Assembly: GCA_945936135.1 (NCBI GenBank)
Contig: CAMESG010000004.1
Span: 50,520-114,519 of the forward strand
Direction: 5' to 3'
Length of the DNA stretch: 64,000 nucleotides
Source: an uncultured Mollicutes bacterium
GTDB lineage: Bacteria > Bacillota_I > Bacilli_A > RFN20 > CAG-826
The position numbers and the translations under genes are program-made. This document shows positions 7,571 through 60,015 of the stretch, one piece after another (position 1 is the stretch's first letter; each line of letters starts with the position of its first letter). Below the pieces are notes generated by a model, which worked only from the letters and a program-made list of their open reading frames with translations, made no database searches and was not told where the DNA came from.

Positions 7571-9697
7571 TTATAACACGGGTTTAATCACGAGCTTTTC
7601 GCCATCGCGATCAAGGATCATATCGTGATCAATCGGTAGGGCACCTTTGATGATTTGCTCCGCCAAATAGGTCTCAACTTGATCTTGAATGAATCTTTTG
7701 ATTGGACGAGCGCCGAATTCTTCGTTGTAGGATTCGTCTAAGATCCAATCCTTTAAGGCATCGGAGAAGGTAATCAAATAATGCCCTTCTACCAAACGGG
7801 TCGAAAGCTCTTGCAGCATCTTGTCAACGATCTTCTTTTGCGCTTCCTTCCCTAATGGGTTGAAGTAGACGATTTCATCGATTCGGTTAAGAAACTCGGG
7901 CTTGAAAGTATGGGCCAAAAGTTCTTGTGCTTCCCCTTTGTTTCCTTCAAGCAAGGCTTTGGAACCAAGGTTGCTCGTCATGATAATAACCGTGTTCTTG
8001 AAGTCGACGATATGGCCTTGGCTATCCGTGAGTCTTCCTTCGTCAAGCACCTGAAGCAAGAGGTTGAAGACTTCGGGATCCGCCTTTTCAATCTCATCGA
8101 AAAGAACAATGGAATATGGGTTTCTGCGCACTTTTTCGGTCAATTGACCGCCTTCTTCGTAGCCAACGTAGCCTGGCGCAGCGCCAATCAAACGAGAGAC
8201 GCTGTATTTCTCCATGTACTCAGACATGTCGATGCGGATGATGTTGTTCTCATTATCGAACAAGGCTTCCGCTAACGCCTTCGAGACTTCCGTTTTGCCT
8301 ACGCCCGTTGGACCGAGGAAAAGGAAACTGCCAATTGGGCGATTCGGGTTCTTAATCCCGGCGCGTTGACGGAGAATCGCGTTGGAAACCAAGCGGATTG
8401 CTTCGTCTTGCCCAATGACACGCTTCGCTAAGGTATCGCGAAGATCCAAGACCTTTTCTTTCTCACCTTTCGCGATTCGGGCAACAGGAATGCCGGTCAT
8501 CTTGGCGACGATCTCCGCGATTTCTTCTTCATCGACGACTTCGTTGACCAAACGATCCGTTTCGGCGTTCTTCTCCTTCATCGCGCGAAGTTGAGCTTCA
8601 AGCTCAGGAATGACTTGGTATTGAAGTTGCGACGCCTTTTGGTAGTCGCCGTTTTGGAAGTTCGTCTGGAGATCGAATTTCGCGCGTTCAAGTTTTTCCT
8701 TCAAACCTTTCGCGTTCGCGACATCTTTCTTCTCTTCTTCCCAGAGGTTCATAAGGCTTTGAAAGTTCGCCTTTTCTTTGTCGAGTTCTTGTTCCAATTC
8801 TTCAAGACGCTTCTTAGAACTTTCGTCCTTTTCCTTCTTGAGAGCTACGCGCTCAATCTCCAATTGACGAATTTTGCGGTTGGATTCATCAAGTTCCGTC
8901 GGCATCGATTCGATTTCGACCTTGATGCCAGCGCAGGCTTCATCCAAAAGGTCAATGGCCTTATCCGGCAAGAAGCGGTTCGTGATGTAGCGATTCGAAA
9001 GGGTGGCTGCGGCCACCAAGGCGCCATCGGTGATTTGAACGCCGTGATAGGATTCAAAACGTTCCTTCAAGCCGCGAAGAATGGAGATCGTATCCGCAAC
9101 GGTGGGCTCTCCGACCATGACGGGTTGGAAGCGGCGTTCTAGCGCGCGGTCTTTTTCAATGTATTTGCGATACTCATTAAGCGTGGTCGCGCCAATGCAT
9201 TCGATTTCGCCACGCGCAAGCAAGGGTTTCAGCATATTGCTCGCATCAAGGCTGCCTTCCGCGTTGCCCGCCCCAACGATCAAATGGATTTCATCGATGA
9301 AAAGGATGATCTTTCCTTCCGATTCCTTGATCTTGTTTAAAACCGCTTTCAAGCGTTCTTCGAATTCGCCGCGGTATTTCGCCCCGGCGACAAGGCTCCC
9401 CATATCGAGTTCATAGATTTCTTTATCCTTCAGAGAAGCAGGGACATCCTCTTTTACAATGCGTTCGGCCAAACCTTCAAGAATCGCGGTTTTGCCAACG
9501 CCTGGTTCGCCTAAAAGGACAACGTTGTTTTTCGTCTTGCGCGAAAGAATTTGAATGACTTTCCGGATTTCGTCGTCGCGCCCGATCACGGGATCAACCT
9601 TGCCCGAAGCGACGAGTTCGTTGAGATTGCGCCCGAAACGATTCAAGATTTCGGGATCGTCCATGTAATTTTCTGGACCCATTTGTTGAAATTGCAT
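7571..9697 (-). CDS. clpB: ClpB-type AAA+ disaggregase lacking the N-terminal domain
   Basis: Two Walker A boxes ([16 protein letters not shown]); coiled-coil middle domain between the two nucleotide-binding domains; 708 aa with no N-domain. Confidence 0.9.
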
Positions 9698-11116: not shown

Positions 11117-11854
11117 ATGGCTATCGATCCCTATTTCTTGCCCCATCTCCAAGACTTGAACCGGCAAGCGCAAAAGCAGTATCGCACCATAGGTAGCGCC
11201 TTTTTGACGTTAGAAGAGGCGGCTTTTGCAACGAATTTCTTCCAAGGGAAAGCAAATTTTAAGGTAGACGGTGGTTACGAAGAAGCCGAAAGAGTGCGTC
11301 TGTTCTTCGCTCCGGACGGGGAAGAGATCATCTCGGATTTGGTTTTGCTTAAAATCTCGCCAAAGGGGAAAAGACTTGGGATGGCGCTAGCCCATCGGGA
11401 TACCTTAGGCGCAATTATGGGCTTAGGGATCCGCCGAGATTGCATCGGAGACCTCGTTATTTTTGAAGGCGAAGCTTACCTCTTTGCTTTGCCTTCTTTG
11501 AAAGATGATCTTCTATCGTTGAGCGAAGTTGGGCGTCAAGCCGTAACCGTAGAAGAGATCCCTTTATCTTCGTTCGCCTTTGCTCCGAAGATCGAAGAAA
11601 AGAGGATCACCCTTTCGAGTCTTCGCCTTGATCTGGTCGTTTCGGCGGCATTCAGCCTAAGCCGAGATAGCGCGAAAAGAGCCGTGGTTTCAGGCTTAGT
11701 GACCCTCAACGGCGTCATCGTTCAAAAACCAGATCTCGAACTTCAAGAAGGCGATCGATTCTCCTTGAAAAGTAAGGGCAAGCGAAAGGTCCTGTCTCTT
11801 GAAGGCGAGTCGAAAAAAGGCAAGGAAGTCGTGATCCTTGGCTATTATCGTTGA
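11117..11854 (+). CDS. YlmH-like S4-domain RNA-binding protein
   Basis: C-terminal S4 domain (LRLDLVVSAAFSLSRDSAKRAVVSGLVTLNG); 245 aa. Confidence 0.6.
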   Translation: MAIDPYFLPHLQDLNRQAQKQYRTIGSAFLTLEEAAFATNFFQGKANFKVDGGYEEAERVRLFFAPDGEEIISDLVLLKISPKGKRLGMALAHRDTLGAIMGLGIRRDCIGDLVIFEGEAYLFALPSLKDDLLSLSEVGRQAVTVEEIPLSSFAFAPKIEEKRITLSSLRLDLVVSAAFSLSRDSAKRAVVSGLVTLNGVIVQKPDLELQEGDRFSLKSKGKRKVLSLEGESKKGKEVVILGYYR

Positions 11855-12414
11855 GAATAATTCGGATCTAAGCGATCCAATAAAGCAACAGAAGCTTTCG
11901 CTGCCTCTTCCCTCGATAAACTATCCTTTCGGAAGATGATCCGCGCATAGATGCAAGCGATGCCGGAAGCAACAATTTTTAGTTCGGTTCGTTGTTCTTC
12001 ATTTTCGGGGTAAAAAGCATCTTCGAAGTGGCGAAGATTGATTTTCGTGATCGTGTCTTCAAGCCCTAATCGGAAGTTTTCGGGCATGCTTTGAGAAAGG
12101 GCGAGGGTTACTTTCTTGTTACTCTCAATGGCTTCGCTCACCGTTTCGAAGAAGCGAACGCGAAGTTCGTGTGTTTCAAATCCGATTTCTTCGCAGGCCT
12201 TTTCCAAGCGACCGAAATATTCCTTGGCAATGGCCATTGCAAGATCCTTCATGTTCCGATAATGGTTGTAGAACGTGCCACGATTAACGCCCGAAGTTTC
12301 GCATAGCTTGGTGATCGTGATTCTGTTGAAAGGGACGCCGTCCTCCAAGAGATCCATCAGCCCTTGACGCAATTGTTCTTTGCTCCGTTTTGCATTTGAA
12401 TACTCGTTTCTCAT
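11845..12414 (-). CDS. TetR-family transcriptional regulator
   Basis: N-terminal TetR-type HTH (ITITKLCETSGVNRGTFYNHY); 189 aa. Confidence 0.75.
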   Translation of the reverse strand: MRNEYSNAKRSKEQLRQGLMDLLEDGVPFNRITITKLCETSGVNRGTFYNHYRNMKDLAMAIAKEYFGRLEKACEEIGFETHELRVRFFETVSEAIESNKKVTLALSQSMPENFRLGLEDTITKINLRHFEDAFYPENEEQRTELKIVASGIACIYARIIFRKDSLSREEAAKASVALLDRLDPNYSQR

Positions 12415-33869: not shown

Positions 33870-34121
33870 TTAACCCAAGCGAGGAAGGATGACTTCGTCC
33901 ACGAAGGAAGGGATCTTTTCGGGGGTTAAGCCCGAGTAGACGTCCTCGCCAACGCGAACCGAAACCCCTTCGGATCCGCAATGGTTCAAACAGAAAGCGG
34001 CTTTGAGATTCACCTTGGAAAGCAAATCCCGTTTGGAAAGTTCTTCTTTCATGGCGTCAATCACGGGCTTCGAGCCTTTCAAATGGCAAGAGCTTCCGAC
34101 GCAGATGGATACATCGATCAT
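33870..34121 (-). CDS. thioredoxin-like [2Fe-2S] ferredoxin (HydC/NuoE-like small subunit)
   Basis: 83 aa with four Cys (CVGSSCH...CLNHC); ATG 3 nt after the adhE stop. Confidence 0.65.
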   Translation of the reverse strand: MIDVSICVGSSCHLKGSKPVIDAMKEELSKRDLLSKVNLKAAFCLNHCGSEGVSVRVGEDVYSGLTPEKIPSFVDEVILPRLG

Positions 34122-34124
34122 ATA

Positions 34125-36767
34125 TCAATTCCCTTTGTAAGCCGCCTTCAAGATCTCGACCATGTCGGGGACGAGCGGCTCGCGAGGGTTCGCTGGTGTG
34201 CACTGGTCCTCGTAGGCCAGGTAAGCGATCTCCTCTAATTTGCTATTATACAGGGCTTCGTCGGGGACGAGGGAGGAGAAATTCATGTCGATTCCGATGT
34301 CTTTGCCCAAATCAAGAACGGCTTTGGCAAGGACATCCTTCGCCTCTTCCTTGTTCTTGCAAGGCAAATCGAGGATGCGGCAAACCTTGTAATACTTCTC
34401 ATCGCAGCAATAGGTCTCGTACTTCGGCCACAAGGCGAGCTTTGTCGGCTGGGTGCCGTTATAGCGGATCACATGAGGAAGCAAAATCGCGCAGGTCTGT
34501 CCGTGGATCGTATGGAATTCGCCGCCCATCTTGTGGGCCAAGGAGTGCGTGATGCCAAGGAAGGCATTCGCGAAAGCCATCCCGGCGATCGTCGCTGCGT
34601 TATGCATTTTCTCACGCGCCTCGGGGTCGTTCTTCCCATCGTGGACGCAACGGGGAAGGTACTTGAAAACCAATTCGATCGCGTGAAGCGCCAAGCCATC
34701 GGTGTAATCGCTCGCCATGACCGAGGTATAGGATTCGATCGCATGGGTCAAGACGTCCATGCCCGTGTAGGCAGTCGAATCCGCAGGAATGTTCGTCGTG
34801 AACTCCGGATCGACGATCGCGATCGAAGGCGTCAACGAGTAATCGGTCAAGGGATATTTCTTGTTGTTTTCCTTATCCGAGATGACGGCGAATGGCGTCA
34901 CTTCCGAGCCCGTTCCCGAGGTCGTCGGGATGCAAATCAATTTGGACTTGCGGCCCAATTCCGGAAATTTGAAGGCCCTTTTGCGGATATCCATGAATTT
35001 CTGCTTGATGTCATCGAAGTTGACTTCGGGGTGTTCATAGAAGATCCACATGCCTTTTGCGGCATCCATCGCGGAGCCTCCGCCAAGGGCGATGATCGTG
35101 TCGGGAGAGAATTCCCTCATCAAAGCGACGCCGCGAAGAACGGTCTTGATATCGGGATCTGGTTCGACCTCGGCGAAAAGCTGATACGTGACCGGGTTCC
35201 GGCGATGATGGAGTTCATCGGTGATCTTGCGCAAGAAGCCGAGCTGGACCATCGAACGGTCGGTGACGATGAAGACTTTCGAAATGTCTTTGGCAGACAT
35301 CAAATATTGAATCGAGTTGCGTTCGAAATAGATCTTTTGCGGAACCTTGAACCATTGCATGGTGTTTCTCCTTTTGCCGACGCGTTTGATGTTGAGCAAG
35401 TTCACGGCGCTGACGTTGCCGCCCACCGAGTTGCCGCCATAAGATCCGCAACCCAACGTAAGGGAAGGAATCAACGAGTTATAAACGTTCCCGATGCCGC
35501 CGAAGGTCGACGGGGAATTCCAAAGGATGCGGATCGCTTTGACCTTGTCGCCGAAGGCATCCGCCATCTTTTGGTCGTGGCAATGGATGGCCGCCGAATG
35601 GCCTAGACCTCCGAATTCAAGCATCTTCTCGCATTGCTCAAAGCCTTCTTTTGCATCCTTCACTTTATATACAGCGAGAATCGGGGAAAGCTTCTCGCGG
35701 CTCAAAGGCTCGATCGAACCAACCTCGGTGCAGTTTACCGCGATAATTTGTGTGCCCTCCGGAACGTCGAAGCCCGCGTTCTTCGCGATGTTTTTCGCGG
35801 ACATCCCGGCGACTTCGCCGCGGAGTTTTGCCTCGTCTTCTTTCCCACACCCTTTGGTCACGCCAAACATATAGGCTTCAAGCTTTGTCTTTTCTTCTTC
35901 GTTTGCGAAGTAGACGCGGTACTTCTTGAAAAGATCGATCGTTTGATCATAAACGGAATCGTCGATGAACACGGCGGATTCCGAGGCGCAGATCATGCCG
36001 TTATCAAAGGACTTCGACAAAACGACATCGTTGACCGCGCGAGTCAAATCCGCGGTTTCGTTGATGTAACAAGGAACGTTTCCAGCGCCGACGCCAAGGG
36101 CAGGCTTGCCTGAGGTATAGGCAGCTTTCACCATGCCAGGTCCGCCCGTAGCGAGGATCGTCGCGACGCCAGGATGCTTCATCAAGGCGCTTGTCGCGTC
36201 AATCGAAGGATGCTCGATCCATTGAATACAGTTTTTCGGAGCACCGGCTTTCACCGCGGCATCCAACATCACCTTGGCCGCTGCGACCGAGCACTTCTGC
36301 GCGCCGGGGTGAAACCCAAAGATAATCGGATTTCTCGTCTTGATGGCAATCAAGCTTTTGAAGATTACGGTCGAAGTTGGGTTTGTGACCGGAGTAACGC
36401 CGCAGATGACGCCAACGGGTTCCGCGATTTCCGTGATGCCCGTAACCGGATCTTCCGAGATCACGCCCACGGTCTTGAGGTGACGCATGTTGTTCACGAC
36501 GTATTCGCAAGCGAAGAGATTCTTCGTCGCCTTGTCTTCGAAAACGCCACGGCCAGTTTCCTCAATCGCCATGCGCGCAAGGATACCATGGTTGTCCAAT
36601 CCGGCGACCGACATCTTCGCGACCATGTTATCCACTTGATCCTGGGTCGCCGTGGAGAATTCCTCCAAGGCGATCAAGGCCTTTTTCACCAACGAATCGA
36701 CTTCTTTTTCGGCCGCGGCTTTTTGAGCCGCCTTTTCCTCTTCGGTTAAGATTTTCTTCTCTGCCAT
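34125..36767 (-). CDS. adhE: bifunctional acetaldehyde-CoA / alcohol dehydrogenase
   Basis: 880 aa; N-terminal aldehyde dehydrogenase domain plus C-terminal iron-type ADH domain (GGGSAMDAAK). Confidence 0.95.
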   Translation of the reverse strand: MAEKKILTEEEKAAQKAAAEKEVDSLVKKALIALEEFSTATQDQVDNMVAKMSVAGLDNHGILARMAIEETGRGVFEDKATKNLFACEYVVNNMRHLKTVGVISEDPVTGITEIAEPVGVICGVTPVTNPTSTVIFKSLIAIKTRNPIIFGFHPGAQKCSVAAAKVMLDAAVKAGAPKNCIQWIEHPSIDATSALMKHPGVATILATGGPGMVKAAYTSGKPALGVGAGNVPCYINETADLTRAVNDVVLSKSFDNGMICASESAVFIDDSVYDQTIDLFKKYRVYFANEEEKTKLEAYMFGVTKGCGKEDEAKLRGEVAGMSAKNIAKNAGFDVPEGTQIIAVNCTEVGSIEPLSREKLSPILAVYKVKDAKEGFEQCEKMLEFGGLGHSAAIHCHDQKMADAFGDKVKAIRILWNSPSTFGGIGNVYNSLIPSLTLGCGSYGGNSVGGNVSAVNLLNIKRVGKRRNTMQWFKVPQKIYFERNSIQYLMSAKDISKVFIVTDRSMVQLGFLRKITDELHHRRNPVTYQLFAEVEPDPDIKTVLRGVALMREFSPDTIIALGGGSAMDAAKGMWIFYEHPEVNFDDIKQKFMDIRKRAFKFPELGRKSKLICIPTTSGTGSEVTPFAVISDKENNKKYPLTDYSLTPSIAIVDPEFTTNIPADSTAYTGMDVLTHAIESYTSVMASDYTDGLALHAIELVFKYLPRCVHDGKNDPEAREKMHNAATIAGMAFANAFLGITHSLAHKMGGEFHTIHGQTCAILLPHVIRYNGTQPTKLALWPKYETYCCDEKYYKVCRILDLPCKNKEEAKDVLAKAVLDLGKDIGIDMNFSSLVPDEALYNSKLEEIAYLAYEDQCTPANPREPLVPDMVEILKAAYKGN

Positions 36768-36829
36768 CGTTACGCTCCTATCGTTCCATTTTCAAACCCC
36801 GTTCTTTCTTCGGGTCATCTCCATAATAT

Positions 36830-37498
36830 TCAAGAGGTAACCCAAGTCAAACTTTTAAGTAAATATTTACCGATATAAGGGATTGAAAACGCTTCCAAAC
36901 TTTTCCCGATCTTGCTCCGTGTGTTTATTTGGAACAAGAAGGATGAAGTTTGGAAGAAAAGATTAGGCGTTTTTGTCCATTTCGTAGGCGCCTTACAAAG
37001 TTTCGGATCCTTTGATCTCACCTTGTTGATATACGCCGTTGCCGATAAGGTCCCTTTGACCACGCCGCCTTGCACGCAATCGACATAGCCTTGCATGTCG
37101 GCCAAGGTGCGATTCGCCGATTCAAGATCTTCATCCGCCATCGTGACGATGAAGTAGAATTCCTTGTTCTTCACTTCAAGCCAACGGGCAACAGTGCGAT
37201 CGATGACCGCCTTGAGTTGAGCGGTGATCGAATAGAAAAAGACGGCGCTAGATGGCACGATGACATCCGCATTGATCATCTTTTGAAGGACGTCCGCCAT
37301 CGCATCTTTTTGCACGCATTCCCTATGGTGTTCGCGGCAGTAATAGCAAGCTAGGCACGGGGCGATCTTCTTGCTCGCGACATGGATCTTTTCAACATCG
37401 TTTTCAGCCTCTTTCGCACCGCGGGTGAACTCATCGCAAATCAAGTCCGAGTTTCCTTTGATTCTCGGAGATCCCGAGAGGACTAAAATCTTTTTCAT
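36830..37498 (-). CDS. flavodoxin-like NAD(P)H-dependent FMN reductase / iron-sulfur flavoprotein family
   Basis: N-terminal KILVLSGSPRIKGNS; CLACYYC cysteine cluster; the C-terminal ~60 aa are atypical and may be an extension. Confidence 0.6.
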   Translation of the reverse strand: MKKILVLSGSPRIKGNSDLICDEFTRGAKEAENDVEKIHVASKKIAPCLACYYCREHHRECVQKDAMADVLQKMINADVIVPSSAVFFYSITAQLKAVIDRTVARWLEVKNKEFYFIVTMADEDLESANRTLADMQGYVDCVQGGVVKGTLSATAYINKVRSKDPKLCKAPTKWTKTPNLFFQTSSFLFQINTRSKIGKSLEAFSIPYIGKYLLKSLTWVTS

Positions 37499-37709
37499 AT
37501 ACGTTTCCTTTCATTATTGTTTGCCTATGCCAATGGGGGTACTGATTCGTTGCAAGGCTTCCGACGAAATACGCATTGATCATATGGATATTGAAAGCCC
37601 TTGTGTTAAGGAAGAATTTGCCGGATTCCCGCCATTCCGAAGTTCATGAGCAAAGCCCATAATTAATCCTAGCATTCCCCGAGGGTTTCATGTATATTAA
37701 TGAACGCGC

Positions 37710-37802
37710 GGAGACATACCCAAGAGGCCGAAGGGGACGGTTTGCTAAACCGTTAGATCGGGAATCCCTGGTGCGAGGGTTCGAATCCCTCTGTCTCCGC
37801 CA
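37710..37802 (+). tRNA. tRNA-Ser (anticodon GCU)
   Basis: 93 nt; acceptor stem GGAGACA/TGTCTCC; anticodon loop TTGCTAA; long variable arm; T-arm GGTTCGAATCC; encoded CCA. Confidence 0.9.
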
Positions 37803-38033
37803 TTACGTCAATCCGCCTCAATGTTTATTGGGGCTTTTTCTTTCACGCCCGGAGCGATGGCTTAAGGCCAACGTGAAGATCGACGAGATTTCGGACTTCC
37901 CGAAACACCGTTCTCTTTTAAATCAATAATTTTTCGTAATATTTGAGGTGCATTTCGTTAGAATTCAGGAAGGCGGAGAGAAATATGGATCTAAAGAGTT
38001 GCGAATACGCCCCCGGGCGCATTGATTTTTTAG

Positions 38034-38519
38034 GCCTACGCAAAGTTCAAGGAGAATCTTGGCGATGGCTTATTCTATCAGGCGGAGAATCTAGAAGAAA
38101 TCGACGTCCCCTCTAGCGTTATCATGATCGAGCCGGAAGCATTCGCAGGTTGCGTGAATCTAAGGCGTTGCGAACTGTGTTCCTGCAACATTCCCAAAAT
38201 CTCCCCGAACACCTTCGAAGACTGCCTTTCTTTGGAGGAACTCCGCCTTCCCGAGGGAACTCTCGTCGTTGGCTCCGATGCGTTTAAAAAGTGTTCTTCT
38301 TTGAAGGCCCTTTCCATTCCCGATTCGGTTCGGGTGATTAACAAAGGCGCGTTCGAAGGATGCGTTTCCTTAGCTACAATTGACCTAAGCGACTCCAAAT
38401 GGGAATATAAGGGCCCTTTTGGTCCGATCTCTTTCACCGGCTATTACTCAACTAGCCCCGCTCAAGCCGCTGCGGATTTGGTCTCGAAATATAGAGGCGT
38501 CTGCAAGAAATTCAAGTGA
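38034..38519 (+). pseudogene. 5'-truncated remnant of a BspA-type leucine-rich-repeat (LRR_5) surface protein gene
   Basis: Reading frame open from the stop at 38031-33 with no start codon until 38124; repeats of the form F.GC..L..I.IP.SV..I...AF..C..L. Confidence 0.5.
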
Positions 38520-38791
38520 ACCGATGAAGAGTTCGAGGCTTTAAGAAATCAAGATAGTGCGAAAAACAGAATGCTCTTGAACATCTATAACAGCAGTCTT
38601 AAAAAAGAATAAAAAGGGCGCCTTCTCCCTGTCCTAAACCTAGAATCATCTTCTGCAGATGTTTTGCCTTCGAGGTTATCGGTTAACTCGCTTATCGAAA
38701 TAACGAAGAGACAATCGAAAAGGGGGAGGTTTCTTTGTTTAACAATGCATCTCCCCTCTTATAGCCTTGTAAGAAATCAAACCAATGAAAA

Positions 38792-38808
38792 TACACCAAT
38801 AGTGTATA
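38792..38808. promoter_or_regulatory. operator-like palindrome TACAC-CAATA-GTGTA about 100 bp upstream of the HTH-protein gene
   Basis: Seen in sequence inside an AT-rich spacer; the downstream gene encodes an N-terminal HTH. Confidence 0.3.
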
Positions 38809-38912
38809 TTTTTTCTCAATAAATAATTTGTATGCTTTTCATATATGCAAAGGCAAGATAGCTTTTACCCATGCCTTCTTGATAATCTTGTTTTGCGAAA
38901 GGAATTTGAGTC

Positions 38913-40145
38913 ATGCTTAAATTAAAAACCAATGAAGAAATAGGTGCATATCTAAAGAAACTAATTCTAAAAAGATATAAAAATTGCAGGCAATTTTGCC
39001 TTGCCTATGCCGCGTTGAGTAATGTTCCGCCGGATCAACGAGACGGCGAGGTAAAACGACTCGCGAACAGAATGTCGCAGATCTCGAAGGGTAAGAAGGG
39101 CATTCAAATCTACGATTTCCCCATCTTCTCGGAACTTTTGGATGCATCTTGCGAGCAAATTCTTTCTGCAGGGGAACTTTGTTTTCCCCGCATGAATCGA
39201 AAAACCAACTACAGCATTGCCTCCTCAAACAACGAATCCGATTGGATCGAATATCTAGAACGAAAGGATTGCGCGGCTTCTTATCTCGACGAATTCGGCA
39301 AATCACTAATCGATTATGCAATCGAATTCAAAAACTATGCTTTGATTAAGTTTCTGACAGAAAAAGGATATATCACCTTCGTTGAAAATGACGCGGAGTA
39401 TCCAGACTTGAACTTCGGGGCGACCACTTCGCTGCAAACAAGGACTGAAGTCAAAACGTTAAAGGACGAACTTTTCGAAAACAAAACGCTTCGGACCAGC
39501 ATCATAACTCTAGCTCTGGAAAAGAACGACTGCAGCGTTTTGGAAAAAATGAAAGCAAGGGAATTCCCTCCTCAATCGTTCATGAATGGAAACACCAATC
39601 TAACGACCAAGATCGCTGATTACTACGATGAGCAATATCTTGAGACCATTTTGCACTCGAACGCCAACGTGATCCGTTATTTCTGCGAAGAGTATAAAGT
39701 GAAGCAATATTGGCAAGGCGATGAAGTTGTATGGATGTTTCCGTTCATGGGAACGCTTATCGCCAAAGCCGTGAAAGAGAACCACGAATATGCGGTCCCT
39801 TTGTTGGATGCGGCAATTAAGCACAACGAGGATTTTTTCAGAAAATTGAAAACGGCGGTACTTCACACAGCCCAACGCATTAAGAAAAACGAAAGACCGG
39901 GAACTGAATTCAAAGAAGTGATCATGGGCGTTCTTCATTACTATCGAGTTTCAAAGGAAAACGACTTTGTTTGCTTCTGGTATCCAGGGTTCGAGGAAAC
40001 CTCCAAAGCGATGACAAACGTCGTTATCGCGAAGGCTCAATCGGAAAACCCTGAAATCCAAAGGAAAATCGACAGTCTAAACGATTTGTATTCTCAATCA
40101 ATAAACCTTGAGGATTATTTGTTCAAAAAGACAACGGCTCGTTGA
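38913..40145 (+). CDS. protein with an N-terminal XRE-like HTH, ankyrin-like repeats and a C-terminal domain of unknown function
   Basis: AGGAA RBS; HTH-like NEEIGAYLKKLILKRYKNCRQFCLAYAAL; ankyrin-like GKSLIDYAIEFKNYALIKFLTEKG and TSIITLALEKNDCSVLEKM; GC below the window average. Confidence 0.6.
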   Translation: MLKLKTNEEIGAYLKKLILKRYKNCRQFCLAYAALSNVPPDQRDGEVKRLANRMSQISKGKKGIQIYDFPIFSELLDASCEQILSAGELCFPRMNRKTNYSIASSNNESDWIEYLERKDCAASYLDEFGKSLIDYAIEFKNYALIKFLTEKGYITFVENDAEYPDLNFGATTSLQTRTEVKTLKDELFENKTLRTSIITLALEKNDCSVLEKMKAREFPPQSFMNGNTNLTTKIADYYDEQYLETILHSNANVIRYFCEEYKVKQYWQGDEVVWMFPFMGTLIAKAVKENHEYAVPLLDAAIKHNEDFFRKLKTAVLHTAQRIKKNERPGTEFKEVIMGVLHYYRVSKENDFVCFWYPGFEETSKAMTNVVIAKAQSENPEIQRKIDSLNDLYSQSINLEDYLFKKTTAR

Positions 40146-40160
40146 AATACTAAGGAAGGA

Positions 40161-40481
40161 ATGAAGATGTCAAAATTCAAAATAGTCAAAGTCTGGGATG
40201 AGTTATATCCCAATGAAACCGAACTCTACGATTACGCAGGAAGGAAAATGAAAAAATCCGCTTGTGGTAATCTTCAAAGCTCATATTGTCCAACAATCGA
40301 TCACATCCGCCCTCTTTCCCAAGGCGGGAAAGATATTCTGGGAAATATTGTGATTTGCCACCGTGAAACCAACGCGGAAAAAGCGGATTCATTCCCTCAC
40401 TGGAAAGCAAATGGGAAAAGATTCAAGGCCATCCGCATCAAAGGGACCAAAGGCAAATACAAGATTGTCGAGGATGAATAA
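40161..40481 (+). CDS. small HNH endonuclease
   Basis: 106 aa; CGNLQSSYC...IDHIRPLSQGGKD...GNIVICHRETNAEK (Cys pair, DH, N and H of the HNH fold); 15 nt downstream of the preceding gene. Confidence 0.7.
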   Translation: MKMSKFKIVKVWDELYPNETELYDYAGRKMKKSACGNLQSSYCPTIDHIRPLSQGGKDILGNIVICHRETNAEKADSFPHWKANGKRFKAIRIKGTKGKYKIVEDE

Positions 40482-40530
40482 ACCGAAAAAACGCCCTTTC
40501 AAGATTTGACGGATTTCAATTCGTAAAAAA

Positions 40531-40564
40531 AGCCCTTCGAATCAATCGAATGATCCAAAGGGCT
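40531..40564 (-). terminator. rho-independent terminator of the minus-strand surface-protein operon
   Basis: Minus-strand RNA stem AGCCCUU...AAGGGCU followed by U7. Confidence 0.45.
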
Positions 40565-40575
40565 TTCGAAGGCGA

Positions 40576-42255
40576 TTACTTACGCGTCAAGCGGACGTTG
40601 TCGAGATAAGCGATGGTTTCGCCCACGCTTCCGCCCGGGAAGAATTGCAAGACATCGATTTGGCCAGCGAGTTCAAAATCCATATTGAAATGGTGCACAA
40701 CGCCCACTTCGAGATTTGGGAAAGCTGGATCTTTGAATCCTCCGTTCCAGAAGAACTTCAAATACATCGTGTCGGTAAACTTTTCAATGAGGTAATCGAA
40801 CTCCAAAGTATAGGTGCCCGCTTGCATAAGAGCTTTGTCAAAGGGAACCAAATAGACGCCGGCATAGCTCCCGTTCGAAACGATTTTGACAGAGCTTCCT
40901 TCGATTCCGTCCGAAACGACGCTGGAAGATGGAGCAGGCGCAGCATCGAGACGGAAGACTTCGTTCGCAGGATCCCCGAAGGTTTCTAACATCGTGTCGC
41001 CAGCATTTGACATGGAATACGGTTTCTCATTCGTTTCCTGCAAGACGTGAGAAACAGTGAAATTATCGATGGAAAGACTCGTTTTCCCTTGAGCCCCTCC
41101 CGGGAAGATTTGGAAAAGATCAGAAGCTTCGGTGGCCGTATACATCCAAGAGAAATGCTGCACGCTTCCAACCAAAGACGGTCCCCCGAACTGCGTGAAG
41201 TGATTCGTGGCGCCCGGGACTTGGAAATATAGCGTATCCACGAAATCATGAATCAAATAATCAAAGGAAATCGCATAGGTTGTCCCGACTTCCATCGCAA
41301 CGAATTGCTTTAGATAAACGCAATTAAAGGCGCCCGAGGATTCAACATAAAGATGGCCGGTGCCATCGATCGCTGTTCCTGCCTCGGTGGAGACTTTTGA
41401 ATTGGGGGTTTGAACATTGTCGTATGCGATCATCGGATCGTGTCGGAAATCGTCGAAAGTCGCGGTTTTGCTCTCGCCAACCTTCAAGGCTGTGGCGTCG
41501 GCAGGCTTAACGACATGATAAGTCAATTCCGTCGTCGCTCCAAAGAAGTTAATGGCTGCGCTCTTCGCGCCCGGAGACGAGGTATCCACGCCTTTCATCA
41601 ACGAAGCATCAAGGGCGAGATCCGCCGAGGTGCCATCTTTATAATTTACGCGCAAAACCGCGCCTTCCGTATTCAATTTCGCACCAACAAGGGTATCGTC
41701 AAGCGTTCCTTGGACAGCGATCGAATCGACGAGATTCGCAATGCAGGTGTATTGGATGGAATAGGCGCTGACCTTTGCTTCCGCACCTTCGTTGACGAGC
41801 ACGAGATAGGCATAAGGTAATGAAGCTTCATAGCTTCCGCTCCCGTTGAACGTGTGGAGCTTTTGATCCAACGAAGTTCCGTCCTTCGAACCGTAGAGGG
41901 CGAGTTTCGCTTCTCCATCGGCTTCGACGTTCACGCGACGGATGCCCGTGACTTCGCCAAGGTTCGCGATTCTGCCTTCGCCGTTGCCCTTCAACACCGC
42001 AACGCCGTCAGACGATGCTTTCGCTTGAGTGAAAGCGAAGGAGGTGTAACGGGAAGCCGCGGTAACGCTGTCTTGATAATCCGTATCAAGAATCGGGCGG
42101 TTCGTTTGGTCAAACGAGATTTCGTAGTTACCCGTCACGCCATAGAAATTTTGAACCGGTGCTTTCCAGTTCGGGCTCATAGCCATGGCAACGCCGCCAA
42201 TCATCATCGTGGCAAGAGCGCCTGCGCCAAGAACCAATTTTGTCTTCTTGTTCAT
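40576..42255 (-). CDS. secreted or surface protein with two copies of a ~100-aa carbohydrate-binding-module-like domain
   Basis: Signal peptide; repeated motif GTGHLYVESSGAF...IFPGGAQG...; paralogous to the next gene. Confidence 0.6.
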   Translation of the reverse strand: MNKKTKLVLGAGALATMMIGGVAMAMSPNWKAPVQNFYGVTGNYEISFDQTNRPILDTDYQDSVTAASRYTSFAFTQAKASSDGVAVLKGNGEGRIANLGEVTGIRRVNVEADGEAKLALYGSKDGTSLDQKLHTFNGSGSYEASLPYAYLVLVNEGAEAKVSAYSIQYTCIANLVDSIAVQGTLDDTLVGAKLNTEGAVLRVNYKDGTSADLALDASLMKGVDTSSPGAKSAAINFFGATTELTYHVVKPADATALKVGESKTATFDDFRHDPMIAYDNVQTPNSKVSTEAGTAIDGTGHLYVESSGAFNCVYLKQFVAMEVGTTYAISFDYLIHDFVDTLYFQVPGATNHFTQFGGPSLVGSVQHFSWMYTATEASDLFQIFPGGAQGKTSLSIDNFTVSHVLQETNEKPYSMSNAGDTMLETFGDPANEVFRLDAAPAPSSSVVSDGIEGSSVKIVSNGSYAGVYLVPFDKALMQAGTYTLEFDYLIEKFTDTMYLKFFWNGGFKDPAFPNLEVGVVHHFNMDFELAGQIDVLQFFPGGSVGETIAYLDNVRLTRK

Positions 42256-42291
42256 GTCATTTTTCCTTTCTTAAAGTTTATTTTTAGACGC

Positions 42292-44301
42292 TTAAGCAGA
42301 GCGTCGAATGACTAAATCGTCGAGGATGAAGCTCGTCGTCCCGCTCGCTCCTCCGGGGAAGATCTGGATCAAGCATCCCGCGGAGGTATTGAGGGTGAAT
42401 TCGTGATCAAAGGTTTTGACTTGTCCGATCTCGGAAGGTGAGCCAAATTGCTCGAAGACCGAAGGGGAACCGAAGAATTGGAAGTAGATCGTGTCAACGA
42501 AGGTCAAGACCTTGTAAGAGAAGGTCACGTGATAGGTCGCTCCCTTCACGTATTCGATCCCCTTATGGATCATGAGCGTTTTGTAGCTGCCCGCGGATTC
42601 AACGTAAAGGTAGCCCGTTCCGTTGATCCCGTCGTCTCCTTGCTTCACGCCGCTATTGGGCGTTTGGGCGTTATCGATCCCAAGTTTCATCGCATTCGGC
42701 GAATCGAAGGTTTCGTGGATTTCATCGCCCACTTCGAGCAAGACGTTCTTAATTTCCGCGGTCGTGCCTTCTTGGCGTTCGATCTTGAGGTTATCCAAGA
42801 CCATGTCGTAACCCGTTTGGGCCGGGAAGAGCATGAGTGCGTAATCATCAACCCCATCAAGGCGGAAAATGTATTCGAAGCGATAGTCTTCTCCAACCTT
42901 GACTTGGCTTAGGTCGATCGGCGAGAACTTGTCGTGGTTATACCCTCCATTCAAGGAACGAAGCTGGACATAGCAGGTCTCGCCCTTGCTGAAGAATCGA
43001 TAATCGAACGAAAGCTTGTAGATTCCATTCGAAGCGAAGCGGATGCCCGAGAAGTAAGTCGCGTTATAGGAACCGGGTGACTTCAAGCGGAGCGAAGAAG
43101 AGCCAGAGAGCACATCTTCCGCTTTCTGAGTGATGTAGGCTTCCGATCCTTGCTGCGGCGCGAAGTAGAGATCGCCACGCGCATCGCCTTGGGGTTCGAA
43201 GTCCTCGGTGAAGGATTCGCCATAATCAAGGGTGATTCTCCGACCCGTGTCGATGCCGATGCCGCCAATCGGATTGGAGGTATAGACGATCGTTGGAAGG
43301 CCGATCGCTTCTTCTCCTAGCGATTTGCTATACGCCGTGACGGAGATACCGACGTACCATCCGTTCAAGTCCTCGGTGATTTCCAAGGAATTGCTCGTTT
43401 CATTGAGGTGCGTTTGGTTCAAGCCATCTTTATCCAAAGCCGCGATCCAGGAATATTCGATGTGGTCGAGTTCATCCCCTTCCGCATCGTAATAGCCGTG
43501 TTCGAAGGAAAGCGTCTTGCCAACTTCCGCTTCACCCGTAAGGCGAAGGTTCGTCACGGTCGGGCGGGAGTTGTTGCGCGTGATCGAAATGTTGTCGATC
43601 GCCATGCTCGCGGCGCTCGTGCTCGGGAAGAGCATGATGCGGTAATCAGAGAAATTCGATAGGTTGATATCGAAAGTCTTATGCATCTTCGCCCCATTGC
43701 CACCATCGAATTGGGCAAAGACATCGCTCGCCGTGCCACCTGTTAAGGAACGGAACTGGAAGTAGAACGTCTGAGGGACATCGATGCAGCGGTAATCCAA
43801 CGAAATCGTGTAGCGTCCAGAGGCTGCGAAGTTCATGCCGCCGAAGGTCACCCCGGCGTAATTGCCTTCGCTATGGATGATCAACGTGTTGTTATCGATC
43901 CCGAATTCGTGATCATTCGCGACTTCGTAACTTGCACCGCTATCCGCGGAAACCGGGCAGATTTTCGTGTGAATTGCGTCCTTTTCGAAATCTTCGACGT
44001 AGGTTTCACCAGAGTTTAGAACCCTCTTCTTTTCCAAAAGAAGATCGTAGAGAGGATCATCCGGCGTACGATTCTCGTTCGTTCCTTCAAGCTTTGTTCC
44101 TTGACCATTCGGGTCGTTATTGAGGTCGCGGATGATCGAGGCTTCGTCAAGACTAGAAGAGGACGAAGAGGAACTCGCTTCTTGGCTCATCGAGCTAGAA
44201 GACGAGGAAGAAGATGAAGAGGGGGAGTCTTGGTCTTCTCCGCAGGAGCATAAAGCCAACGCGGAGAAGGCGAGAAGGAGGATGGGCTTAAGTTTATTCA
44301 T
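42292..44301 (-). CDS. surface lipoprotein with a poly-Ser linker and two to three copies of the same CBM-like domain
   Basis: Lipobox LALCSCG; S-rich linker; repeated GTGYLYVESAGSY...IFPGGASG motif. Confidence 0.6.
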   Translation of the reverse strand: MNKLKPILLLAFSALALCSCGEDQDSPSSSSSSSSSSMSQEASSSSSSSSLDEASIIRDLNNDPNGQGTKLEGTNENRTPDDPLYDLLLEKKRVLNSGETYVEDFEKDAIHTKICPVSADSGASYEVANDHEFGIDNNTLIIHSEGNYAGVTFGGMNFAASGRYTISLDYRCIDVPQTFYFQFRSLTGGTASDVFAQFDGGNGAKMHKTFDINLSNFSDYRIMLFPSTSAASMAIDNISITRNNSRPTVTNLRLTGEAEVGKTLSFEHGYYDAEGDELDHIEYSWIAALDKDGLNQTHLNETSNSLEITEDLNGWYVGISVTAYSKSLGEEAIGLPTIVYTSNPIGGIGIDTGRRITLDYGESFTEDFEPQGDARGDLYFAPQQGSEAYITQKAEDVLSGSSSLRLKSPGSYNATYFSGIRFASNGIYKLSFDYRFFSKGETCYVQLRSLNGGYNHDKFSPIDLSQVKVGEDYRFEYIFRLDGVDDYALMLFPAQTGYDMVLDNLKIERQEGTTAEIKNVLLEVGDEIHETFDSPNAMKLGIDNAQTPNSGVKQGDDGINGTGYLYVESAGSYKTLMIHKGIEYVKGATYHVTFSYKVLTFVDTIYFQFFGSPSVFEQFGSPSEIGQVKTFDHEFTLNTSAGCLIQIFPGGASGTTSFILDDLVIRRSA

Positions 44302-59923: not shown

Positions 59924-60015
59924 GGAGAAATACCCAAGTGGTCGAAGGGGGCGGTTTCGAAAACCGTTAGTGGGGTCATGCTCCAGCCAGGGTTCGAATC
60001 CCTGTTTCTCCGCCA
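59924..60015 (+). tRNA. tRNA-Ser (anticodon CGA)
   Basis: 92 nt; acceptor stem GGAGAAA/TTTCTCC; anticodon loop TTCGAAA; long variable arm; T-arm GGTTCGAATCC; encoded CCA. Confidence 0.9.

Follow-up and report, generated by a model that had tools for sequence, protein, structure and literature searches.

A segment of about 1.8 kb in the genome of an uncultured Mollicutes bacterium (GCA_945936135.1) is a strain-specific insertion relative to a 97%-identical sister genome and contains a promoter and two genes, nothing else. It is located at positions 38728-40525 (forward strand, borders good to about 20 nt) of a 64,000-nucleotide stretch of contig CAMESG010000004.1 (positions 50,520 to 114,519), which we call the window. 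The first gene of this cassette (38913-40145, forward strand) encodes a protein of 410 amino acids (aa) with a helix-turn-helix (HTH), an ankyrin-like middle part and an unrecognised C-terminal domain, which we propose to be repressor and sensor in one. The second gene (40167-40481, forward strand) encodes a 104-aa HNH (His-Me finger) nuclease. Our favoured reading, to which we assign a probability of roughly 45%, is that the pair forms a transcriptionally gated nuclease defence module that was acquired as an integrase-less islet. The initial annotation, made from the sequence alone, had proposed a horizontally acquired two-gene cassette pairing a possibly autoregulated DNA-binding protein with a small nuclease, and all the features it listed are present at or near the positions it gave.

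For comparison, we used the sister assembly GCA_051872275.1 and three Logan contigs (together L065-L068). The named members of the 90% clusters of the flanking AdhE and 559-aa proteins are, by exact look-ups, 'Candidatus Enteromonas sp.', a label by which the host is placed in Candidatus Enteromonas (Bacilli). L065-L068 show the same gene order as the window, i.e., hydrogenase, AdhE, flavin mononucleotide (FMN) reductase, tRNA, two leucine-rich repeat (LRR) genes, the 559-aa and a 669-aa protein, a beta-helix/CBM9 protein and a sugar ABC transporter. The LRR genes are intact in these syntenic loci, and both the 410-aa gene and the HNH gene are absent. Three collinear blocks were obtained by blastn: window 34000-38070 corresponds to L066 16516-12449 (96.8% identity), window 38068-38700 to L066 10469-9836 (81.6%) and window 40576-44000 to L066 9680-6256 (96.9%). 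MAFFT alignments with the sister genome extend through native intergenic DNA 3′ of the LRR gene (38613-38727), including one indel of 40 nt, and similarity stops after ATCGAAAAGGGGGAG. From there on the cassette, which has no counterpart in L065-L068, stands where the sister has about 30 nt of intergenic DNA. Its GC content is 0.409 compared to 0.51 in the flanks. The absence from the sister genome and the lower GC content both agree with the horizontal acquisition proposed before. Since cassettes in low-GC hosts have a GC content of 0.27-0.37, the copy in the window is partly ameliorated.

The foreign DNA is shorter than first annotated. The islet had been taken to extend from 37803 to 40565 and to be flanked by a tRNA gene, whereas the region of about 38728-40525 is foreign and is separated from the tRNA by approximately 265 nt of native DNA (37803-38067), common to the window and the sister genome, and by an LRR gene remnant. 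The tRNA-Ser(GCU) gene (37710-37802, forward strand) was detected by ARAGORN and by Rfam (56.6 bits) and ends at 37802 as annotated; it is native, lies outside the insert within the 34000-38070 block, and the insert starts about 925 nt past it, with native DNA in between. An att-like repeat of the tRNA 3′ end, anticipated near 40.5 kb, was found neither near the islet nor elsewhere in the window, and tRNA-site integration of the window copy was therefore rejected. Terminal inverted or direct repeats were not found at the insert borders either. That no integrase lies in the window was supported by a rough check, a tblastn search with two tyrosine integrases in which no integrase-like open reading frame (ORF) was found, and the syntenic sister loci have no annotated integrase within 8 kb. 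The window copy thus has neither the integrase nor the tRNA 3′-end repeat by which tRNA-integrated genomic islands are recognised. Downstream, a hairpin terminator (40529-40566; inverted repeat of 19 + 19 nt, 84% complementary) separates the HNH gene from the convergent 559-aa gene (40576-42255, reverse strand). It had been counted as part of the islet but is native and not cassette-borne, since L066 has a homologous hairpin following its own 559-aa gene.

Upstream of the cassette lies the remnant of a BspA-type LRR gene (38034-38519, forward strand; Pfam LRR_5, E 4.8e-25), which, as described in the initial annotation, is an open frame whose 5′ end has no start codon; an internal ATG at 38124 gives a 131-aa ORF. 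At 38067-38072, about 1.98 kb of the sister DNA is missing; in the sister, this DNA holds one LRR gene of 460 aa and the 5′ third of another, of 285 aa. This deletion junction is defined by blastn alignments in which the window up to 38070 matches L066 up to 12449 and the window from 38068 matches L066 from 10469. In a three-way alignment the switch occurs after CTTGGCGATG, with a microhomology of just 2-4 nt. The remnant corresponds, with 81.6% identity, to the 3′ part of the 285-aa LRR gene of the sister genome and so is far more diverged than the flanks (97%), for which reason it may have come in with the cassette via recombination with a more distant relative. Its frame is interrupted by a premature TGA at 38517-38519, where L066 has GGA, and continues as a pseudogenised tail (38520-38612, forward strand) of 31 codons to the ancestral TAA at 38610-38612, in codon-for-codon alignment with the end of the L066 LRR gene. 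Genetic code 4 as an explanation for this TGA was rejected, since the 410-aa gene itself ends at TGA, at the point where its relatives end too. The region 38520-38912 had been regarded entirely as AT-rich spacer. It is indeed AT-rich (GC content 0.40 for 38520-38727 and 0.32 for 38728-38912 versus 0.51 in the flanks), but its first part is the LRR pseudogene tail. A non-coding RNA in the spacer was rejected, as Rfam finds tRNA only.

The 410-aa protein matches no Pfam, NCBIfam, PHROGs or PADLOC model at cut-off, and a PDB profile search was also without a match. The XRE-type HTH that had been read into its N-terminus is confirmed by fold comparison, which revealed the five-helix lambda-repressor-like DNA-binding fold characteristic of the XRE family. 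The C-terminal domain resembles no recognised domain, as had been stated before, and the ankyrin-like character of the middle part is tentative. The family comprises 248 clusters at 90% identity; at 50% identity there are 461 representatives with E up to 1e-3 and 218 with E up to 1e-30, nearly all of 390-450 aa and matching end to end. Among 37 aligned members the mean column identity is 66%. All family-invariant residues are kept in both ORFs of the window, the 410-aa gene and the HNH gene. The family is patchily distributed and no housekeeping orthologs were found.

The palindrome ATACAC-CAATA-GTGTAT, noticed already in the initial annotation, is present at 38791-38807 and occurs once in the 64 kb, with 0 occurrences expected. 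We aligned the 160 nt 5′ of the 410-aa gene with those of 12 other loci, which share a conserved layout consisting of a -35 region TTGACA, an operator O1, a -10 region, a second operator O2, a second -10-like box and the ribosome-binding site (RBS) CAAGGAG. The family O1 reads TATACAC-N5-GTGTATA and runs into the -10 region TATAAT (consensus TTGACA-TATACACcaaaaGTGTATA-TAAT). In the window, O1 is AATACAC-CAATA-GTGTATA (38790-38810, forward strand), overlapping a -10-like TATATT (38805-38810). The window palindrome is a conserved predicted operator within a conserved promoter, consistent with the possible autoregulation suggested before. In the distant homologs L136, L047, L051 and L060 the half-sites of O1 change in step, as expected of a cognate repressor-operator pair. 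O2 (TTGTATGCTTTTCATATATGCAA, 38828-38850, forward strand) is degenerate in the window and aligns with a conserved imperfect palindrome TGTATGCTTTTnGTGTATACA located about 20 nt 3′ of the -10 region. The second -10-like box (GATAAT, 38881-38886, forward strand; GATATAAT in the family) and the RBS of the 410-aa gene (GAAAGGAA, 38897-38904, forward strand) are both conserved in the alignment, and the family consensus over the two reads TGATATAAT ... CAAGGAG. In several relatives (L004 7608-7910, L166 9609-9896, L089 4413-4630 and L008 1300-1499), a gene fragment that is conserved and about 100 codons long (...EYITTNYGNLENWLTTQIEATINILKNNYQ) is located just 5′ of the cassette promoter. This fragment contains stop codons in some loci, has no Pfam match and is absent from the window.

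The product of the second gene passes the Pfam cut-offs for HNH_4 (28.8 bits, cut-off 22) and HNH (24.9 bits, cut-off 21.4). The closest solved proteins are the HNH domains of Cas9 and IscB, with marginal E values of 0.016-0.08, and PADLOC likewise gave only weak matches to the Cas9 HNH domain and none to PtuB. The HNH motif TIDHIRPLSQGGKDILGNIVICHRETNAEK, a beta-beta-alpha motif with the catalytic D-H and the structural and metal-binding Asn residues, is present and aligns to the Cas9 HNH core, and the residues D45-H46, N60, N69 and K72, which are invariant in 30 relatives, are all kept. These comparisons show a predicted nuclease of the Cas9 type with an intact catalytic motif. The gene had been annotated with a start at 40161 and 106 aa. 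MSK is the N-terminus of all 30 relatives in the alignment, and the RBS AAGGAAGG at 40151-40158 fits a later start, so that translation probably begins at 40167, giving 104 aa and a gap of 21 nt to the 410-aa gene. The family has 173 clusters at 90% identity with a length of about 103 aa, and the members listed are 60-70% identical to the HNH protein of the window.

The two genes are linked in other organisms as well. A GTDB survey with one genome per species yielded 61 loci with a gene for a 410-aa relative, almost all in gut or rumen Firmicutes. An HNH gene is located directly 3′ on the same strand, 1-86 nt away, in nine of these 61 loci, and there the 410-aa gene is 43-58% identical to that of the window, except for one with 37%. 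Including metagenome loci, the adjacent and co-oriented pair was found at 16 distinct loci of several Firmicutes lineages, which supports the two-gene cassette of the initial annotation; in the window the 410-aa stop and the HNH start are 15-21 nt apart, depending on the start used. Full-text literature searches found no description of this pairing. With the genes linked elsewhere, no housekeeping orthologs of the 410-aa protein and the segment missing from the sister locus, the inference of a horizontally acquired regulator-nuclease cassette that belongs to no described system has survived the refutation tests set for it in the initial annotation.

The genes next to the pair point in several loci to defence functions. 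Type I restriction-modification (R-M) genes adjoin it in L166 and L010. Of the PADLOC candidate genes, PDC-S53 (5.9e-95) is a neighbour in L004, and L009 has both PDC-S01 and PDC-M60A. The pair in L007 is accompanied by a PrimPol-helicase, and a variant of the HNH gene in L074 is surrounded by AbiEii, SduA_C and McrB_N genes. Other pairs are placed between housekeeping genes. Judged by these neighbourhoods, some copies of the cassette lie in defence islands, and among the three functions considered initially, toxin/immunity, phage exclusion and selfish nuclease, the context favours defence. A phage origin was rejected, as IMG/VR and INPHARED contain no member of the 410-aa family and neither family was found in cultured phages. 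The HNH family is represented by one IMG/VR contig, and mycobacteriophage HNH genes match at the core motif only. A plasmid origin was rejected too, since neither family was found in plasmids.

The HNH gene also occurs behind other partners. An HNH-seeded metagenome scan yielded 80 loci, and partner classes were counted after removal of HNH duplicates and with at least 1.5 kb of upstream sequence required. The 410-aa protein is the upstream partner at 16 distinct loci, a number that is inflated because many of these loci were fetched with the 410-aa protein as query. ATPases of 591-602 aa (AAA_15/AAA_21) matching the PADLOC models AriA, PtuA and GajA, with a C-terminus that is HTH-like by eye only, were also found at 16 distinct loci. 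The remaining classes are a DUF4238 protein with a 73-89-aa HTH_3 protein (11 distinct loci), a 444-aa protein of no family with a 71-aa HTH_3 protein (seven distinct loci), a small HTH protein with a prokaryotic viperin (PADLOC pVip, 3.9e-65; three distinct loci) and a hydrophobic, probably membrane-bound 454-aa protein with no Pfam match (one locus). A 413-aa unrecognised protein precedes the HNH gene in L152, which has less than 1.5 kb of upstream sequence and lies outside these counts. Each class supplies an XRE-type HTH beside the HNH protein. In the classes with a separate HTH protein, a palindrome (e.g., TGAACC-N-GGTTCA) is located just before a -10-like box 5′ of the HNH gene. The RBS and start codon of the HNH gene are near-identical across all classes (AAAGGAGGTACTCAAAATGTCAAAG). 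In the viperin-HNH operon (L099 1257-2703, also L106, L091 and L119) an HNH protein of about 103 aa is encoded 25-26 nt 3′ of pVip and a small HTH gene lies 5′; a description of this operon was not found in the literature.

In about half of 70 loci, the HNH gene is followed by a member of one of three families of short acidic ORFs (S1-S3, 53-96 aa, no Pfam match), for example in L017 (from 9643), L014 (from 9604) and L007 (from 9597). Such ORFs also follow the 410-aa homologs in L013, L015, L036, L044, L048, L052 and L055 and hence accompany either the HNH gene or, directly, the regulator. The N-terminal sequences of the three families are MSKRFFDYDDGDF..., MSKWCYNYDSGEYE... and MGKGHGVSGHTHTQ..NQNNPNN. 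No acidic ORF follows the HNH gene in the window.

Several of the HNH loci belong to integrative elements. L113 (2968-6312), L116 (561-6312) and L146 (2321-4518) share a backbone with 95-99% nucleotide identity on both sides of unrelated cargo between an integrase gene and the HNH gene, namely p444 plus HTH, AAA_21 plus RloB plus AAA_15, or DUF4238 plus HTH. Between L113 and L116, 1.6 kb (p444 plus HTH) in one corresponds to 4.0 kb (AAA_21, RloB, AAA_15) in the other. The left edge of the swap is the 3′ end of a gene for a 474-477-aa tyrosine integrase (Pfam Phage_integrase, 1.5e-26), and a tRNA-Pro gene is located 440-700 nt beyond the HNH gene at this hotspot. The swapped region of L113 and L116 is the integrase-to-att cargo slot of an integrative element. 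An association with tRNA genes, as assumed in the initial annotation, applies to the 410-aa family and not to the window copy: a tRNA gene on the same strand lies at most 1.2 kb upstream in 11 of 66 distinct 410-aa loci, involving nine anticodons (0.68 expected, Poisson P 2e-10). In L166, an 18-nt direct repeat (CCATTAAAAACATATAGG, 9336-9353 and 11848-11865) starts from the last 3 nt of tRNA-Leu(GAG), recurs 265 nt after the HNH stop and brackets an integrase-less islet of 2.5 kb. CIMEs of Streptococcus thermophilus are cis-mobilisable att-flanked islets that carry no recombinase. The small integrase-less islet, the L166 pair within its direct repeat and the enrichment of the 410-aa family just 3′ of tRNA genes resemble them, whereas no repeat flanks the window copy, which is not adjacent to the tRNA gene.

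Among known defence systems, Septu (PtuA ATPase plus PtuB HNH) and retron-associated Septu share with the window cassette a two-gene layout ending in a small HNH_4/HNH nuclease; the domain content of Septu is reportedly that set out by Doron and colleagues in 2018. Moreover, relatives of the window HNH (59-68% identical) stand directly behind the 591-602-aa ATPases that match the PtuA, AriA and GajA models. However, neither the window cassette nor its neighbours include an ATPase, the HTH/ankyrin-like partner has no P-loop, and the HNH protein has no PtuB match. The controller (C) proteins of R-M systems are stand-alone proteins of 70-100 aa, whereas the HTH of the window is fused to about 320 further residues and is accompanied by a 104-aa HNH and no methyltransferase. 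The XRE repressors of CapH/CapP and ImmR/ImmA are cleaved by a separate metalloprotease; the window cassette has no protease gene, and its sensor would be fused to the repressor. Similar in concept is Ambrosia, a validated system comprising an XRE regulator, a two-component system, a methyltransferase and a type IV HNH nuclease, in which the XRE regulator is proposed to gate the HNH (bioRxiv 10.1101/2025.09.30.679545). In both cases, expression of a potentially self-toxic HNH would be kept down by an XRE-type repressor until infection lifts the block. Ambrosia differs in having five genes, and its methylase, histidine kinase and response regulator are all missing from the window; it is likened to the cassette by concept and not by sequence and, by this analogy, offers a precedent for an XRE-gated HNH. 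In kind, the cassette would be an HNH-effector defence or toxin-antitoxin (TA)-type module under XRE control, and the swapping of partners is the most interesting lead.

According to the favoured reading of a gated defence module, the 410-aa protein would bind O1 and O2 as a dimer and keep the operon, including the nuclease, nearly silent. Its release from the operator would raise HNH expression, and the HNH protein would nick or degrade DNA, by which the phage or the infected cell would be stopped. The window cassette would then be one class of a wider modular family in which the same small HNH stands under an XRE-type HTH and a palindromic operator, with interchangeable partners. Several points weigh against this reading. 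A sensing role of the ankyrin-like and C-terminal part, be it for an infection cue, a phage protein or the state of the cell, is pure conjecture. A PADLOC-DB v2 search with the 410-aa protein gave no family at E up to 1. Most of the more distant 410-aa homologs (30-38% identity) have no HNH gene and are followed by zinc-ribbon membrane proteins, a lipoprotein-like gene or short acidic ORFs, which indicates that the 410-aa protein can work without the HNH. HNH proteins that are 96-99% identical stand behind unrelated partner classes, and the right edge of the cargo swap is located 16 nt before the HNH ATG, at its RBS; for this reason the HNH could belong to the core of an integrative element, as an anchor gene, instead of being the effector of its partner. 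Finally, the promoter in the window is below consensus, with the -35 TTGACA gone, TATATT as -10 region, and O2 and both RBSs degenerate. Because of the lost -35 and the weaker -10 and RBS, expression in the window is uncertain.

The type II TA-like addiction module is an explanation that we regard as rather unlikely. The HNH would be a DNase toxin, and the 410-aa protein a large antitoxin that represses via its HTH and neutralises the HNH by direct binding via its ankyrin-like/C-terminal part; the module would stabilise the islet or a mobile element, and abortive infection might arise as a by-product. The order of the genes, regulator first and toxin second with a gap of 15-44 nt, fits this view, as do the bicistronic operon with an HTH-fold first gene and conserved, putatively autoregulatory palindromes, the patchy distribution and the association with mobile elements. 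Colicin DNases are paired with Im proteins, and the small acidic ORFs after HNH in about half of the loci recall such pairs, although the window has none. A cognate protein-protein neutraliser is difficult to reconcile with near-identical HNHs next to unrelated upstream partners, among them ABC ATPases and pVip, which has antiviral activity of its own, and 410 aa is far above the typical size of an antitoxin. Equally doubtful in our view is that the pair is no functional unit at all, the HNH with its RBS being the constant anchor or core gene beside which integrative elements take up cargo at a hotspot, and the 410-aa regulator one of many independent cargo genes. The common backbone of L113, L116 and L146 with unrelated cargo between integrase 3′ end and HNH, the tRNA-Pro beyond the HNH, the near-identical RBS and start in all classes and the 410-aa homologs without HNH would be explained in this way. 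Such independence is contradicted by the lack of an own promoter of the HNH in the 410-aa class, where it lies 15-44 nt after the upstream stop, by the joint divergence of the pair in distinct genomic contexts, where identities are down to 49-60% and 58-70%, by the arrival of both window genes together without an integrase or other element genes, and by the XRE HTH beside the HNH in every class.

Quite improbable is a solitary, type IV-like restriction nuclease under C-protein control, in which the HTH would be the controller and the rest of the 410-aa protein would target the HNH to modified or foreign DNA, with no need for a methyltransferase. Paired upstream palindromic boxes like C-boxes, the HNH as a common restriction fold (one source labels a relative 'McrA') and a type I R-M neighbour in two loci are in line with it. 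Yet a methyltransferase is absent from the window cassette and from 16 related loci, a DNA-modification reader domain was not detected, the 104-aa HNH has no targeting domain and the partners of the remaining classes do not resemble R-M components. An RRNPP-like peptide-sensing transcription factor, composed of an HTH and a helical-repeat receptor, with the neighbouring genes merely its regulon, seems very improbable. The ORFs of 53-96 aa after many 410-aa homologs could be taken for its peptides, but to judge from their sequences they are acidic and carry no signal or export motifs; they also follow HNH genes with other partners, and the window has no such ORF. In addition, the root-mean-square deviation outside the HTH is 12-14 Å, and the tetratricopeptide repeats expected of an RRNPP protein were not detected in the 410-aa protein.

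Beyond the gated module itself, a bolder reading, which we put forward as speculation with odds clearly against it, concerns the wider family. Together with its RBS and an XRE-controlled promoter, the 104-aa HNH would be the universal 'effector socket' of an unrecognised defence superfamily of gut Firmicutes, whose unrelated sensors and antiviral genes are hot-swapped by recombination at the near-invariant HNH 5′ end in the integrase-to-att cargo slot. The islet of the window would be a stranded two-gene copy.

Some features of the surrounding DNA were noted in passing. The FMN-reductase ORF (36830-37498, reverse strand) has 222 aa, of which Pfam covers residues 3-120 only, and its C-terminal part resembles read-through; the product at this site in the sister genome has 113 aa, which may be a frameshift or extension difference between strains. 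A 79-aa ORF (37690-37929, forward strand), called as a gene in several related contigs, overlaps tRNA-Ser(GCU) and is almost certainly spurious. The 559-aa and 669-aa proteins (40576-44301 and beyond, reverse strand) have N-termini like those of secreted or membrane-anchored proteins and essentially no Pfam matches except for a weak Big_3 match in the 559-aa protein; the 669-aa protein has a Ser-rich linker. Their genes, followed in the sister genome by those for the beta-helix/CBM9 protein and the sugar ABC transporter, look like a glycan-utilisation locus of unassigned specificity. The 3′ end of a second tRNA-Ser (CGA, 59924-60015) shares 23 of 25 nt with that of tRNA-Ser(GCU). A 656-aa ORF on the opposite strand enters this tRNA gene, probably through a mis-set start, and a weak integrase match by tblastn at the same place (E 0.78) is probably due to chance.

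For the uncultured Enteromonas lineage, the comparison reveals a strain-level event in which surface LRR genes were lost and a cassette was gained. If the favoured reading is true, the cassette would represent an anti-phage module, undescribed so far, that is fairly common in gut Firmicutes (461 regulator and 173 HNH clusters), with immunity gated at transcription, as a repressor fused to its own sensor would silence a minimal nuclease. The wider pattern may matter more, i.e., one near-invariant small nuclease with many unrelated partners, including viperin, that are exchanged between near-identical genomes. This exchange of partners is a concrete example of defence-module shuffling and, if the effector-socket reading were true, would amount to a cassette-exchange mechanism for immune specificity.

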